A stretch of 64,000 nucleotides of DNA from Yuukianura sp. NJ FZ-2021 (Eukaryota). This document shows, one piece after another, positions 12,958 to 33,210 of this stretch. Where the stretch lies: the NCBI GenBank assembly GCA_046563655.1, contig CM102285.1, positions 3,410,001 to 3,474,000 of the forward strand, given 5' to 3'. Each line of letters opens with the position of its first letter. The first letter of the stretch is position 1. Below the pieces are notes generated by a model. It ran no database searches. It was given only the letters and a program-made list of their open reading frames with translations, and was not told the origin of the DNA. Made by a program: the position numbers and the translations under genes.

Positions 12958-14000
12958 ATGGAAGCCATAGGTAATAATGATTTATGATTTCGTTACTTTT
13001 GTTTCACCCAATCACAGATTTTATCCCAGTTTTCCGGATAAGGAACTTCCAGGAATTGGCAAGCTTCACGACCCCAACTGATGCAACTCCTTTCAACCAA
13101 ATCGTACTTCGAACCTCTGCAAATAATTTATCATTGCAAACCATTCCCGGTAAGTTTTTATGTTTGAATTTCAATTTTGCAAAAACCATTTCATTTTGGC
13201 ACATTATGTAACAAACCTGAAGTTTTCTGCGTTCATTTCGTTTACCCAGGCTTCGAATTCTTCAAACAATTTCGGAGTTTTTCCGACGTCTTCACGACTT
13301 CGAAGAGAAAACACAGGGTACTTGGATTTTGGAGTTTCGTGCAATGGAACCTACCGCAGCATCCTAAACTTTATTTACACCCAACAACGTTGCTGTTGAT
13401 AATTTACCAAACTCCGAAGGATTCCAAGATCTCCGTACTCATAGAGGTATCCATAAACAATAATCCCAACGTGGTCGACAGCATCGGGGACGTTGTCAGT
13501 GGAACTGCTCGTGGCGCCTGTAAGTTTTCGTTATGAAAAAAAATTGTGTAAGTTTTGAAATATGTGAATTAATTCATTAAATTACATATAAATGAATTAA
13601 TGACCTAGGAAGAAGTGACCCAGAGCTGTTCCAGCTACACCAAGAGTTATGTCCCAACACACGGCGTGCACTGGATGGTCCGAAACTTGTGGAATTCCTG
13701 CCACTTTTCCAACCAGGTCAGTCACATTCTGAAGAGCGTTCATCCTGATTCGCAATGTCACCGGCTTCTCACTCCCACTTCATTATTATCAGGCACACGA
13801 ACGTCAATTTTTCCAGAAGTGAAACCGCTGTATCAAAAACTATGAAAATTGGACGGAAATTGCTGAGGCACGATCCCGAGGTACGTCTTCACCTTGAAAA
13901 GTCAGTTTCACTATTATCTGATTGTAACTCGTGCTAATTGAAAAATTGAATTTGCAATTTCAGGGTGGCTCTTCCTCTTCCACGGCTTCACTTGTGCCAC
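12958..14000 (+). pseudogene. Possible degenerate multi-exon gene of unknown family
   Basis: ATG at 12958 and good splice sites give three in-frame exons (MEAI|DFIPVFRIRNF...QTIP|GFEFFKQF...ARGA). The next junction (donor ~13520 to acceptor ~13608) creates TGA or needs a frameshift. No recognisable domain. Confidence 0.3.
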
Positions 14001-14456
14001 TTTAGCGGCACCCACTCTTCCACTAACAACAAAACAAGGCTTCCTATCTGGTATCGACGATCTTATAGTTTAGGTACGTTCGTATCTATATGCTTAAAAG
14101 AAGAATAAGTAGCGCAACCAGATGCCGTGATGCCAAGCCCAGGGAGACGTCACATCACTTTCCCTATTTTACACAACAAACTTCTGAATCATGACTCTCT
14201 TCTTCATTCGCTCGCTAAAAAAAGAATTTGACCTCGCTTTTCCACTTTTCCAAGAAAAAATAGAAGAAAACGTGTTGGGCCAGCTTTTTATGAAAAGACA
14301 AAAACTGAAAATGCGATGAAGAAGCGATTGGAAGTTTGGAAAACTAATTCGCATGTGCGTTGTTTTACTTTGGCAGTCTAGCATATGGAATGTCTTGAAA
14401 GATTTTAAAAACCGAAAATATTACTATGGATCTAATCTAACTTAATTTGACTATTT

Positions 14457-15440
14457 TCAGGTGCCTAATTGAAAAATATTGTTTTCTGATTTTTCATAGG
14501 CCTCAAACCACCAGGAGTTGACTGTGTAGAAGACGTCTTTTCGTCGCTCGGCTTCCGTTTTGCCTGCCCAGTCTTTATCCAACCAAGGCTTCGTAAAAAT
14601 GTAATGGACTACTCGTACTTCATCGTCTCTCCACATATTGGTGTGAGCAAAGGTCAAAGGTCGCAGAGCATTGTAATAGTAAGGTAGACATGTCCATCGA
14701 CCAGCATAAACTTCGTTGAGGAAGTCTTGGTCTGGAAAGCGGTACTTGTCTAGTGACTCGATCGTTTTCAATTTGTTTATGAGTTCTTCAAAGGCATGTT
14801 TTGAAGGGCGGAACACAATTAATCCGGAATTGAAGTATGGAGCACACTTTTTGGGTGGATCGCCGTTGGAAATGTGTGAGTTCCTGGAATAGTAGGTGTA
14901 CGAACAATTTTCTGGAATCCTGCAAATTTTGAAAAAAAAATTATTAAATTAATGTTTTTTTTAAAGATCGCTAGAGAAAAACTGATATTTTCCATACCAA
15001 TGCACTGGGTAAGATGGAACTTTCATTGGATTACAGAGGCATCCTGGACTGGCAGCGATCCAACCTTCTGGAAGTTCAAGTTCCATCAAGTCATCTACAT
15101 TTTGACGAATGAGCATGTCAGCATCCAATAGGACGACGCGTGAGTATTCAGTTAAACCAAAGACTTGTATTTTTGTCCAAGTGTCACGATAATAAGGTTG
15201 GGCATACTGATCATCCAGAACGTCAATTTCAATGTTTGTTGTTTCTTTTAGCACACATCCACAGTCTTTAAGTTTTTCTACACTTTCGGCAGACAGAGTG
15301 TCACGGGTATACAGGACCACAAGGGGGTAGACACTTTTTACAGATCGAAGTGACCACCACAACACTTTGACACCAAGGAAGTAATCGTCGGAGGTCAAGA
15401 GCACTGCGAAAGCACCATTCACGCCCTCCGACTTGTGCAT
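14457..15440 (-). CDS. Glycosyltransferase family 8 (glycogenin/galactinol-synthase-like, fungal-type); 2 coding exons, intron 14920-14997
   Basis: Motifs TWTKIQVFGLTEYSRVVLLDADML (DxD), FNSGLIV, FPDQDFLN, LPYYYNA and VVHYIFTKPW. The phase-2 intron joins VHW|IPENCSY. Confidence 0.92.
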
Positions 15441-16838
15441 TTCTCCTGAATTCAAAATTTGGATCGATTACAGAACTTTCCCTCTCGCGTAAGCTTCTTT
15501 TTTTCAAAAACTTTCTCTTTGATGGAAACAAAAACTGCTTTGGAAAACTAGAAGTTTTTTTTTCTCAAAAAGTTTTAACAAAATTGGGGTTTCTTCATTG
15601 AATGGCCATTGGACGACTGATACTGATTTGGTCTGCGTGTACTAAATACTAATCGTGTAATTTAAATTTTTGGTTTCAGAATTCATGGTCGGACGTGGAT
15701 TAGATTATGTTTAACGAGTTCAAATGCGGGGACTAAGCACGCGTAGAAGTGTGGAACTGTTGACATACTATAATGGTCTGAATCACGCCTGTTAGACGGT
15801 AAAGGTTATCACTTCGACTTCACTAGCCACTTCACATACCAAAAGAATGAAAAGATGTTTTATAGTTTTCCAATTTCAGTTATATCGGGATTAGCCATGG
15901 ATTTATTCTTCCCTGTATTTAGATGTTGTAAGAACAGACGTCTTGAAAGTTGACCTTGGATATTTTGGTTCTAAGGACGCTGCTGGAAATGAACTTTGCG
16001 TTGTCTGGAAATATCAAATTGTACGAAAAAAAAACACTCTTTTGTACAGAAAAAGTTATTGGTTGTTTACTTATTGAAGTTGGACGTTCACTGCTTTTCC
16101 TGTATGTCAATGAATAAGCTAACACTTAATTCTATAACCATTTTGACGAAAGGGAATTCTATAAAATAATTTCCTGGAAGCACTTTCACATTTTACCATC
16201 TTTTACCGTCACTGAGGACTGAAGAGCTACTATTTGCCGAGCCTTGCCGGTTGCCGCCTAAAAACCTTCTGTCAACTTCCCACTCGGGTTTTTCTATTTT
16301 TTGCCAAATGCTACTGTGTTATTTCTGCTTCTAGTTTTCTTTCCTTTTAGCTTTGACATTTCCGCAAACGATAAAAGATCCGTGCCCAGAAAGTATTGGA
16401 TTTTTTATTTGTCGATTTTGCGGTTAGTCTCGTGTTATTTTACGGTTCTAATTGCAACTGGAAAGAGACCAGGCGGAAAACATTGAAATTTTATACTAAC
16501 GATTTAGAATTGGAAAAATCAAGGTCAAAACCTTTCAGGTTCTACAAAACGAGCCCAATTGGGAACCAGTGACGTCAATAATTTTGTGAATTCGTGGATG
16601 CGAAATAATTCAATTTTTTTATTCGCTTTGGATTGACACGAAAATTTAAATATTTGTGTAAGATTGCATTAATATAATATTCATGTAAACTGACATAGTT
16701 TGCACTTTCCTATTTTATAACTTTATATCGCTCATTTTTCTCTTCAATTATGTTGTTAAAACTAATTTTACAGAAATTAGACTAAACAAACAAACCAAAT
16801 ATTAAAACTAAATAAAAAATTAAACGGATCGATCCTTG

Positions 16839-17727
16839 TCATTCGGAAATTGCTTCTCTTCTGAACAAAATTTCTTCTTCTTCTGGTACGACGATGACAC
16901 GAATCAAGTTCCAGCGCTGTCTTGATTCTTCCTTGTGCCCGCTGTTCAAACACTCTCCCTCACTTACCAGATTACTATCAATTTTACCCCTAAATTTTAA
17001 CCATTAGTTAAACTCACTGTGTTAGGCCTGAAAATTTAAAAGTTCTTTAATTTATAACTTACTTTTTCGCAGAAGTACCAACTTGAAGGCACAAATTCGT
17101 CCGGGCATTTTGAATTTGGAATTTTTCATCTCCATAGTATTTCACTTTCCAGACGTTGAGTTCTGCCAGTGTTCTTCCTGGAGGGTAAAATGCTGTTACT
17201 GTATTAAGGTACTCGTGTCTCGACTGGATCCAATAGCCTTGATGCTTGCTTCGAAGCGCTGAAATTTTAAACAAAACGGAATTTCAAAAAACGAAATTGC
17301 TTAAACTGAATTTCGAAATTTGGTCGAAGCAATTTTGAAATTTTATCAAATCTAACACATACGTTCCCATGTTAGCGTCCATCCTTGTGTCATGACGTCT
17401 GTATTTGGCATAGTAGCAACAAGTCCTGTTCGAAGTCCCACTATCCCCTGCTCAACTACTGTCAGGAACTAACTTTTTCAATTAAAAAGTACCGAAAAAG
17501 GTATGTGCAGATTAAAAAGTTTAAAATTTTCATGTTCTAAGAAATTCACATTTCGAAAATCTTACATTTTTATTTGCAACGTTGCGAATTTTGTAGTTCC
17601 CACCATCTCGAATCTCTGGCGGTTGCGCACGCTGTTCCGGATGCACTTGCGCATTTGAGTAGATCAAAAATCCACAACATACAATTATTGCAACAAAAAC
17701 AATTTCAAATTTTTTAAAAAGCAACAT
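16839..17727 (-). CDS. Secreted ricin-B (beta-trefoil) lectin-like protein, 4 exons
   Basis: Signal peptide, then GNYKIRNVANKNFL, QGW, NVWKVKYYGDEKFQIQNARTNLCLQV and RQRWNL (three QxW-type repeats). GT-AG introns; stop at 16839-16841. Confidence 0.75.
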
Positions 17728-18285
17728 AACTGCCAAAGCCCAAACTTTTTCGTCCTTAAAATCAGATAAAATGCTCTTAGATGTCTTGACTGATAAGTTT
17801 GAATTTTATGAATGAAATCAAAAGTGAAATTAAATTCGCCCATACTAAATTTTTGCTTTTGTTTGAAAACCAAAATTTCACTTTGTGTGAAAACTTGTAA
17901 TACAACTTTACATACTCGCGTAGTGACTTGAGCGGATGACCTACCTAAGCAAATTGCGGTTCTGCGAATGTAATTTGTGATGCGCATAAGATTGCGTTAA
18001 ATCAAAAGTGACCTTGCGTTTCTTAATTGTTGGTCCTAGTACCACCAATTTCTTTGCCAAAAGTTTAATATCCATTGGGGCATCTAAATTAGAGTTATGT
18101 TGTGCAATTTTAATGTAATGTTGAGCTTTTGGCCAATGAGATTTAATTATGCACTTCTTCCTTTTACTTCCCTTAATTTCAAGTGACCCCCAATGAATTA
18201 TATAATCACAGTTAAAATTCAATTTCAGTTTAGATTTAGTCTTCAACAGAAGCAGAAGACAGCGTCCTGTACAATAATAACAAAC

Positions 18286-32709: not shown

Positions 32710-32994
32710 CTAATAACAAGATCTATCTTCCAGATACCACTCACCCCACATACCCCCTACCCCTCGATTAATGCATAGCGTAGGTGTCCTACATATTCCG
32801 CCGGGACATCCAACAGTAACCTGGCACGCCACCATCCAGTCTCCATGGATGTTCCAAAGACGAGAAGTATATTCGCGCCTACCTGGTCTGGAGCACTCGC
32901 CACTAGTGTAAGTACCCCAATTAGCACCCTTTGTCAAGTTCTCTCCAAGCACAAGGATCACAATACATAGAACATACAGAAATGTACGAATCAT
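32710..32994 (-). CDS. Small intronless secreted Cys/Trp/Gly-rich protein (94 aa)
   Basis: ATG at 32994, hydrophobic signal peptide, mature region with 6 Cys and 5 Trp (C..PGRREYTSRLWNI..DW..AC...C.NRG.GGMWGEW...DRSC). Confidence 0.8.
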   Translation of the reverse strand: MIRTFLYVLCIVILVLGENLTKGANWGTYTSGECSRPGRREYTSRLWNIHGDWMVACQVTVGCPGGICRTPTLCINRGVGGMWGEWYLEDRSCY

Positions 32995-33210
32995 TATCCG
33001 TTCCCGATTCAAACTTGTGACAGATTCAAATCAGGAATCCATTTATGACTAGTGATTGGCCGCGGTCAAATTGGTTGTGTTGTTATTGCCATGTGACGTA
33101 ATATAAAGTCTGTCATCCAAGGAAAATAGTCGTTATCTAAAATAAAATAAAACGGGGTTTTAGTAAAAGAATGTCATTCTAAGTGTTGTAGAAGTGAACA
33201 TAGGTAGTCG

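Follow-up and report, generated by a model that had tools for sequence, protein, structure and literature searches.

A cysteine-insert GT8 glycosyltransferase gene of probable fungal origin in a springtail genome and the oxidase that accompanies its subfamily in bacteria

Glycosyltransferases of family GT8 use a uridine diphosphate (UDP)-sugar donor and a divalent metal bound by a DxD motif, and they retain the anomeric configuration. Plant galactinol synthases (GolS) are cytosolic retaining GT8 enzymes that act on a small acceptor, carry a Cys-bearing insert at a place similar to that in the protein described here and end in a hydrophobic pentapeptide; they are not known to have an oxidase partner. 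Animal glycogenin has no Cys insert and a long C-terminal tail, and fungal GT8 proteins with a Cys insert are often labelled automatically as "galactinol synthase". Here, we describe a Cys-insert GT8 gene in a 64,000-nucleotide stretch of the genome of Yuukianura sp. NJ FZ-2021 (G000:C3:3410001-3474000; hereafter the window), which lies on a contig, C3, of 15.3 Mb in a genome of 98.7 Mb and 22 contigs. Horizontal transfer into springtails is well known, and one more fungal gene is ordinary; what is new is the near-constant oxidase partner of this GT8 and the presence of both halves in one animal genome. Folsomia candida has 809 foreign genes, 32.8% of them fungal, with glycosyltransferases among the three largest classes of carbohydrate-active enzymes, and GT8 is not mentioned in the main text of that study (PMC5490193).

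The GT8 gene occupies two exons on the minus strand (15440-14457) and encodes 301 amino acids (aa) without internal stops (Table 1). Both exons score above the Pfam cut-off for GT8 (PF01501, 24.3 bits), and predicted splicing of the single 78-nt GT-AG intron restores the family motif of the Cys insert. A preliminary description of this DNA had noted one coding intron and a Cys-rich insert between the DxD and FNSG motifs; the peptide is indeed present, with D106-A-D108 on one side and residues 177-180 on the other, and the family alignment identifies N178/G180 as the NxG motif. It had also noted that a signal peptide and the glycogenin C-terminal tail are missing, in agreement with our analysis: the protein stops 41 residues past KPW, and its most hydrophobic 19-residue window (1.18) corresponds, in the alignment, to the initial strand and helix of the glycogenin fold. 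The homologues start at the same place as its predicted Met. Upstream, six ATGs occur within 660 nt, and no signal-like frame begins at any of them. A possible splice acceptor, an AG located 5 nt ahead of the start codon, could mark a 5′ untranslated intron or a tiny upstream exon. The three insert Cys and the invariant H240 may form a zinc site. The sequence thus shows an intact, single-copy gene for a predicted cytosolic protein of a non-animal, three-Cys-insert subfamily on an arthropod chromosome, the host being an arthropod because its genome has 41 matches to Chitin_bind_4 (arthropod cuticle). A nematode host, to which the style of the introns might point, was rejected on account of these matches.

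The closest known proteins are uncharacterised fungal Cys-insert GT8s (P0004 of Endogone, P0003 of Jimgerdemannia), which are 43-47% identical to host GT8 over about 285 aa. The animal protein keeps 51 of 57 conserved sites, including the three Cys, DxD, NxG, QD, H and KPW; the six others include R234-P235 for K-T, SPG rather than the usual xHA precedes the first insert Cys, and the branch is long. A model of P0004 (47% identical to host GT8; pLDDT 97) has a glycogenin-like GT-A fold, with glycogenin, which shares DxD, NxG, H and KPW, and 6mw5 as its best structural matches (template modeling score about 0.7 for glycogenin). The nearest solved sequence relative of host GT8 is also 6mw5, a protein-modifying galactosyltransferase.

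Orthology with glycogenin was ruled out. The host has its own glycogenin gene on G000:C2 (about 6.14 Mb), which contains several introns and is followed by an exon for a presumed glycogen-synthase-binding tail; its motifs were recognised in part through alignments with glycogenins of the Protein Data Bank (PDB). Host GT8 is 24% identical to this native glycogenin (53.5 bits), against 243 bits for the Endogone homologue, in a comparison whose animal side consists of native and PDB glycogenins, and a profile built without the rows of the window gave 359 bits for host GT8 and 90 for native glycogenin. The earlier view that the protein is not an animal glycogenin therefore holds. Searches with each exon find one locus in the host genome and no paralogues. 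Eight further PF01501 matches in this genome read as seven GXYLT-like genes and one LARGE-like gene. GXYLT-like genes with N-terminal hydrophobic segments form a tandem expansion at G000:C4:1.288-1.294 Mb.

The named matches of the protein and profile searches were mainly fungi. The protein searches with the two exons covered longer proteins and depended on shared words: exon 1 gave 56 matches among 498 candidates, the 39 named ones being 38 fungi and an oomycete (Aphanomyces), and exon 2 gave 54 among 135 candidates, with 38 named, all fungi. A profile search of 1.84 billion representatives yielded 503 matches at E 1e-30; of the 150 listed, we looked up 30 clusters, of which 17 were named (12 fungi of several phyla, two green algae, Plasmodiophora, Microcoleus and Lentzea). 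No animal and no plant GolS was found among the named matches. The best homologue is at most 47% identical to host GT8 over 200 aa. Host GT8 would itself rank near the top of the profile list, and a full-length close orthologue, if a representative, should therefore have appeared; no annotated one surfaced in the protein and profile searches. The ESM Atlas returned generic GT8 and ALO clusters only. Viral carriage was rejected, since 5 of 110 pattern matches were viral, all partial and 26-29% identical. GTDB contributed 112 relatives, of which 80 entered the analysis: 47 from Pantoea and the rest from other Enterobacterales, Cernens and Actinobacteria (196-226 bits).

The preliminary description had regarded the insert as typical of fungal GT8 proteins. 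Fungi do dominate the named relatives, and the pattern CxC[N/D]...[Y/F]P..W occurs in 165 of 240 homologues, but that view was too narrow, because the insert is also found in Pantoea, Erwinia, Sodalis, many Actinobacteria, Microcoleus, Plasmodiophora, Aphanomyces and the green alga Cymbomonas. Host GT8 itself has the longer subfamily form of the insert, CxCN...YPxxWxPxxC. The insert is thus not a signature of fungi alone.

Phylogenetic analyses placed host GT8 with fungi. A FastTree phylogeny of 93 rows put it in a fungal group (0.94), separate from the bacterial group and near Mucoromycota/Zoopagomycota. A more careful IQ-TREE analysis of 43 selected rows and 277 columns (LG+C20+F+G4), whose bootstrap had not quite converged, put it within a group of 21 fungi (84/93). 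There its sister group was Dikarya together with Geranomyces (91/76), no starred branch contained it, and unnamed GolS-like rows grouped apart. Its fungal neighbours thus vary by tree, being Mucoromycota/Zoopagomycota, a Dikarya sister group or long-branch unknowns. Forcing host GT8 together with nine bacteria was rejected at the borderline (p-AU 0.046), and forcing it together with native glycogenin, the sole outgroup and a very long branch, was not rejected (p-AU 0.226). The latter constraint merely shifts GT8 to the family base; as it is nevertheless not rejected, the tree alone is no proof of nesting in fungi. On balance, the trees point to a fungal donor, although not firmly. Elsewhere in the GT8 phylogeny, Erwinia groups with Actinobacteria, which suggests transfer between phyla. 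Taken together, the data make it very probable that GT8 reached the host by horizontal transfer and, with less confidence, probable that the donor was a fungus.

The integration of the gene bears on the contrary explanation, that there was no transfer and that GT8 is an ancient paralogue of eukaryotes which the other animals no longer have, or else a contaminant or misassembly. The window also holds CNG-channel, SID-1, MFS and PLC/SH2 (PLC-gamma-like) genes, and contig C3 has cuticle genes too; the genes immediately flanking GT8 have no Pfam match above cut-off. GC content at third codon positions (GC3) is 0.41 and 0.47 in the GT8 exons and 0.32-0.50 in six other gene segments of the window. 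The stretch is present in five DNA runs of two studies, and we compared reads and contigs of four of them (X1, X2 and X4, possibly the assembly's own sample, and X5, from the second study), and all 30 bins of the GT8 stretch were covered in each run. Depth in X1 was 201-412 in the gene and 131-371 in its flanks; in X5 it was lower: 2.3-5.8 in the gene, compared with 2.5-7.6 close by and 16-17 farther to the right. The gene is joined to its flanks by two X5 contigs, one over the stop (14294-14698) and one over the start (15124-15506), and no single piece covers the whole stretch. Sixteen differences in the coding sequence (among 40 listed of 346) comprise 11 synonymous and 5 non-synonymous ones, over 195 and 708 sites, respectively, which gives a pN/pS of about 0.13 (binomial p 7e-5). 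The GT8 alleles are under purifying selection.

A 15.3-Mb contig with animal genes, contigs of a second study that bridge both gene ends, an intron of host type and selection on its alleles thus argue against a contaminant, and the lack of named animal members and the best placement within fungi argue against an old paralogue. We consider both versions very unlikely, even though the family is spread across fungi, protists, algae and bacteria, the host branch is long, many matches are unnamed and a position outside the family was not rejected. With a separate native glycogenin, host-like GC3 and even read depth in addition, the earlier proposal of a domesticated transferred gene is supported. 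Differences between the assembly and a haplotype common to both studies are dense at window positions 13749-13798 (11 in 50 nt) and 14463-14565 (13 in 103 nt); these clusters represent high allelic divergence.

The bacterial relatives revealed a constant gene partner. An oxidase with FAD_binding_4 and ALO domains lies upstream of GT8 on the same strand in 79 of the 80 GTDB loci, in two phyla; the gap is below 200 bp in 76 loci, two loci have a split best match, and the genes abut in one. The genera concerned include Pantoea, Erwinia, Sodalis, Arthrobacter, Subtercola and Nakamurella, and the clade of these oxidases has an ALO domain and a PQINxE motif. As these loci had been picked by GT8 and 47 of the 80 were Pantoea, so that the rows are not independent, two independent tests were run. 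The first sampled a single order of Actinobacteria evenly, with 401 genomes, and used an oxidase threshold (E 1e-70) set to catch this subfamily. The oxidase was present in 18, GT8 in 20 and neither in 381, and GT8 lay directly behind the oxidase, less than 200 bp away, in 18/18 oxidase genomes (17/17 minus the query genome). For the second test, metagenome loci were chosen solely by likeness to a host oxidase described below (at least 547 relatives, 80 kept). A Cys-insert GT8 lay directly downstream in 10 of the 12 loci scoring at least 246 bits (one of the others was cut and one had no GT8) and in none of the 68 scoring at most 164 bits, 46 of which contain the complete oxidase end plus 400 nt beyond; this split follows a score gap noticed after scoring.

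GT8 occurs without the oxidase in three bacteria, namely Cernens (whole genome) and two actinobacteria (DNA around the gene), and no substitute partner was found upstream of the two actinobacterial copies. One of these, L212:5047-5892 (G263), adjoins a convergent GT4 gene and, at 229 bits and 47% identity to host GT8, scores above any cassette copy. A third cassette gene was sought and rejected, since the neighbouring genes differ from locus to locus and none is common to the two phyla. In the open full-text literature, as covered by titles and the starts of abstracts and with subscription papers largely outside, we found no description of the oxidase-GT8 cassette or of an erythroascorbate glycosyltransferase gene. 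A two-gene oxidase plus GT8 cassette common to Enterobacterales and Actinobacteria is thus apparently undescribed.

The constancy of this partner speaks against the preliminary proposal that GT8 might make a galactinol-like osmoprotectant, for which the enzyme would act alone on UDP-galactose and myo-inositol: galactinol synthesis needs no oxidase, and the conserved partner is not an inositol gene. Host GT8, predicted to be cytosolic, is similar in size to GolS, but the C-terminal pentapeptide of the plant enzyme is absent from it. An inositol/levoglucosan-dehydrogenase-like gene does stand beside GT8 in 27 of the 80 loci, in convergent orientation on the opposite strand and almost confined to Pantoea. 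The idea otherwise goes back to the automatic "Galactinol synthase" labels of some fungal matches, which rest on similarity, the function of fungal GT8s being described as largely unclear (PMC13562431). We therefore regard galactinol synthesis as quite improbable.

The host genome contains an oxidase of the cassette type. The best of its 21 PF04030 matches is a two-exon gene on contig C7, among intron-bearing host-type genes, for a 502-aa protein with a flavin adenine dinucleotide (FAD)-binding domain. This C7 oxidase is 36% identical to the Pantoea cassette oxidase (317 bits), and a quick tree grouped it with all cassette oxidases tested in a starred clade of 27 rows (SH-aLRT 98), 25 of which have the PQINxE motif, apart from generic bacterial ALO proteins. 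Its nearest named relatives, among 120 listed of 230 matches, are the chytrid Gorgonomyces (49%), Sorochytrium (35%) and Streptomyces (34%), with no animal named among these 120. A metagenome protein, P0263 (JGI, 9.3-kb contig), is 73% identical and predicted full-length in one piece; it could come from another arthropod or from the donor lineage. Judging from these matches, the C7 oxidase is likely a second horizontal transfer. The host pair thus resembles the bacterial cassette in both members, GT8 being of the same subfamily (37-44% identity) and the oxidase of the same clade; unlike in the cassette, the host genes are on different contigs, have one intron each and are both closer to fungal copies than to cassette ones.

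We favour, though less firmly than the transfer itself or its fungal source, the view that GT8 and the oxidase act in one pathway. The contrary possibility, that GT8 arrived independently of the oxidase and serves, for instance, to cap erythroascorbate from a fungal diet, or else a toxin or protein, fits the separate locations and different nearest fungi of the two host genes, the lone bacterial GT8s and the protein substrate of 6mw5. In addition, Dikarya and Mucoromycota have GT8, yet neither is found among the 120 best oxidase matches. Against this, the host kept, among many ALO-domain subfamilies, exactly the one linked to the cassette, and we therefore consider independence unlikely.

If the two enzymes do act together, GT8 would transfer a sugar from a UDP donor with a divalent metal and retention, yielding an alpha-glycoside of a small soluble acceptor, which the cassette suggests is common to both enzymes. 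Glycosylation of a pentose or lactone would come first and oxidation second. This order appears likelier because, in the bacterial sample, every oxidase comes with a GT8 but not every GT8 with an oxidase, and because a substrate-binding Glu is missing from the oxidase. By analogy with fungal erythroascorbate and 6-deoxyascorbate 5-O-glycosides, the product may be a glycoside of an ascorbate-type reductone, a tentative assignment for the chain as a whole. Lentinula, Hypsizygus and Phycomyces, producers of ascorbate-analogue glycosides, carry a Cys-insert GT8 according to the exon searches. Fungi produce erythroascorbate, 6-deoxyascorbate and their 5-O-glycosides (PMC6191929; PMC4396506), and one such compound is named an alpha-xyloside, as a metabolite label only (PMC12598303); an alpha product needs a retaining enzyme.

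In the host, such a glycoside would be a reserve of antioxidant or reductant, in a lineage for which the loss of GULO has been reported. This loss is dated before the split of crustaceans and insects (PMC11377030), and brine shrimp cysts, which keep ascorbate as a capped ester, provide an arthropod precedent for storage (PMC6191929). In an exon-by-exon search of the host genome, the best of 53 matches to TIGR01678 reached 116 bits, and the six highest-scoring loci read as plant-GULLO-like; no animal GULO was recognized, although absence is not shown by such a search. Plant-GULLO-like FAD oxidases form a large family on contigs C2, C4, C6 and C7 (TIGR01677 is the best match of the three that were scanned, and the N terminus of at least one member is signal-like), and a microbial-looking FAD oxidase with a weak ALO match lies at G000:C6:198490-200229.

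The most far-reaching version of this proposal is that the Cys-insert GT8 is the fungal (erythro)ascorbate alpha-glycosyltransferase, that with the cassette plant- and soil-associated bacteria make an ascorbate analogue and that a springtail without GULO rebuilt the two-step pathway from fungal genes and stores a vitamin-C-like glycoside. As a whole, we hold it to be doubtful. Several observations weigh against the reductone glycoside proposal in general. Six of the 57 sites conserved in the family differ in host GT8, with R234-P235 among the changes, and its placement is backed by no starred branch, with the glycogenin constraint unrejected. The GTDB loci are not independent, and three bacteria have GT8 without oxidase. 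In the host, the two genes are unlinked and their nearest fungi differ (a chytrid for the oxidase and, weakly, Dikarya or Mucoromycota for GT8), and with many foreign genes in the genome, their co-presence may be due to chance.

The oxidase itself adds to these points. It shares the FAD_binding_4 and ALO domains with GULO, fungal ALO, plant GLDH and bacterial alditol oxidase, but it falls below all family cut-offs and forms a clade of its own: against the TIGR01678 cut-off of 396.8 bits, cassette-type oxidases score 125-162, the C7 exons 95 and 55 and P0263 162. Among its solved-structure matches, which include no GULO or ALO structure, the cassette oxidase comes closest to alditol (xylitol) oxidase (104 bits) and scores lower with galactonolactone dehydrogenase (68 bits). 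Where alditol oxidase has the FAD-linking His, the C7 oxidase has Met and its cassette kin Met or Leu, and in the Glu-x-Arg pair, presumably substrate binding, both have Ile for Glu, while the C7 oxidase keeps Arg. The absence of His and Glu could reflect a glycosylated or deoxy substrate, or else different chemistry; a glycosylated or deoxy substrate would account for the oxidase always keeping GT8 while GT8 stands alone. No characterised enzyme of either subfamily was found in our searches, and the product is therefore guessed from the partner's family. Finally, prokaryotes are held not to make ascorbate (PMC6191929), and the stabilising effect of capping is described for 2-O derivatives (PMC11066809), 5-O-glycosides leaving the enediol free.

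Several of these points would suit another product. The transferred oxidase and GT8 might make a compatible solute that is not a reductone, such as a polyol or aldonic acid glycoside (glucosylglycerate- or glycosylglycerol-like) for drought, cold or salt. The same cassette evidence applies, alditol oxidase is the nearest solved relative of the oxidase, no bacterial ascorbate is required, and GT8 cargo genes of Aspergillus oryzae, which may or may not belong to this subfamily, have been tentatively linked to salt stress (PMC13562431). However, the oxidase also lacks the Glu and His of alditol oxidase, and the cassette has no phosphatase or transporter and variable flanks. Such a solute is possible, if less likely than a reductone glycoside in our estimation; it would still imply an undescribed small-molecule pathway common to bacteria, fungi and an arthropod.

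With the reductone glycoside proposal, the cassette replaces the galactinol guess with a specific, testable two-enzyme pathway. It touches on three open points: the enzyme behind the fungal ascorbate-analogue glycosides, whose biosynthesis has been called poorly understood (PMC4396506); the possible production of an ascorbate analogue by bacteria; and the source of a vitamin-C-type reductant in hexapods without GULO.

Table 1. Positions of the GT8 gene features in the window and of the oxidase gene on contig C7
Feature	Position	Strand	Details
GT8 coding exon 1	14998..15440	-	ATG at 15440; residues 1-147 plus two bases of Trp148; PF01501 33.0 bits
Intron	14920..14997	-	78 nt, phase 2, GT-AG, 20% GC, T-rich 3′ end; within a Trp codon of the Cys insert
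GT8 coding exon 2	14457..14919	-	Residues 148-301, stop TGA 14459-14457; PF01501 46.6 bits
DxD metal/nucleotide-sugar motif, D106-A-D108	15117..15125	-	Each Asp invariant in the 87 family rows and shared by native glycogenin
Cys insert, C134-x-C136...C153, spanning the intron	14904..15041	-	All three Cys invariant in the 87 family rows, in part because of how the rows were selected
FNSG motif (177-180)	14823..14834	-	Sequence and family alignment
Q212-D213 of the GT8 DQD/DQG motif	14724..14729	-	Family alignment
H240 (family-specific), H253, KPW 258-260	14583..14645	-	Family alignment
Splice-acceptor-like site, 5 nt upstream of the ATG	15446..15452	-	Sequence only
ALO-domain FAD oxidase	G000:C7:7385322-7386934	-	502 aa, two exons, one intron; best of 21 PF04030 matches in the genome

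Three further observations concern the surroundings of GT8. An upstream multi-exon gene on the minus strand (window about 16840-17750) starts with a hydrophobic segment at its N terminus and weakly matches ricin-type lectins (E 0.002, below cut-off). A short, secreted-looking open reading frame (ORF) bearing Cys and Trp lies at window 32713-33030, also on the minus strand, and has no Pfam match. About 19-27 kb from GT8, at G000:C3:3397700-3405500, the ORFs read as four or more BBE-like FAD oxidase genes in tandem, each secreted-looking and with two exons.

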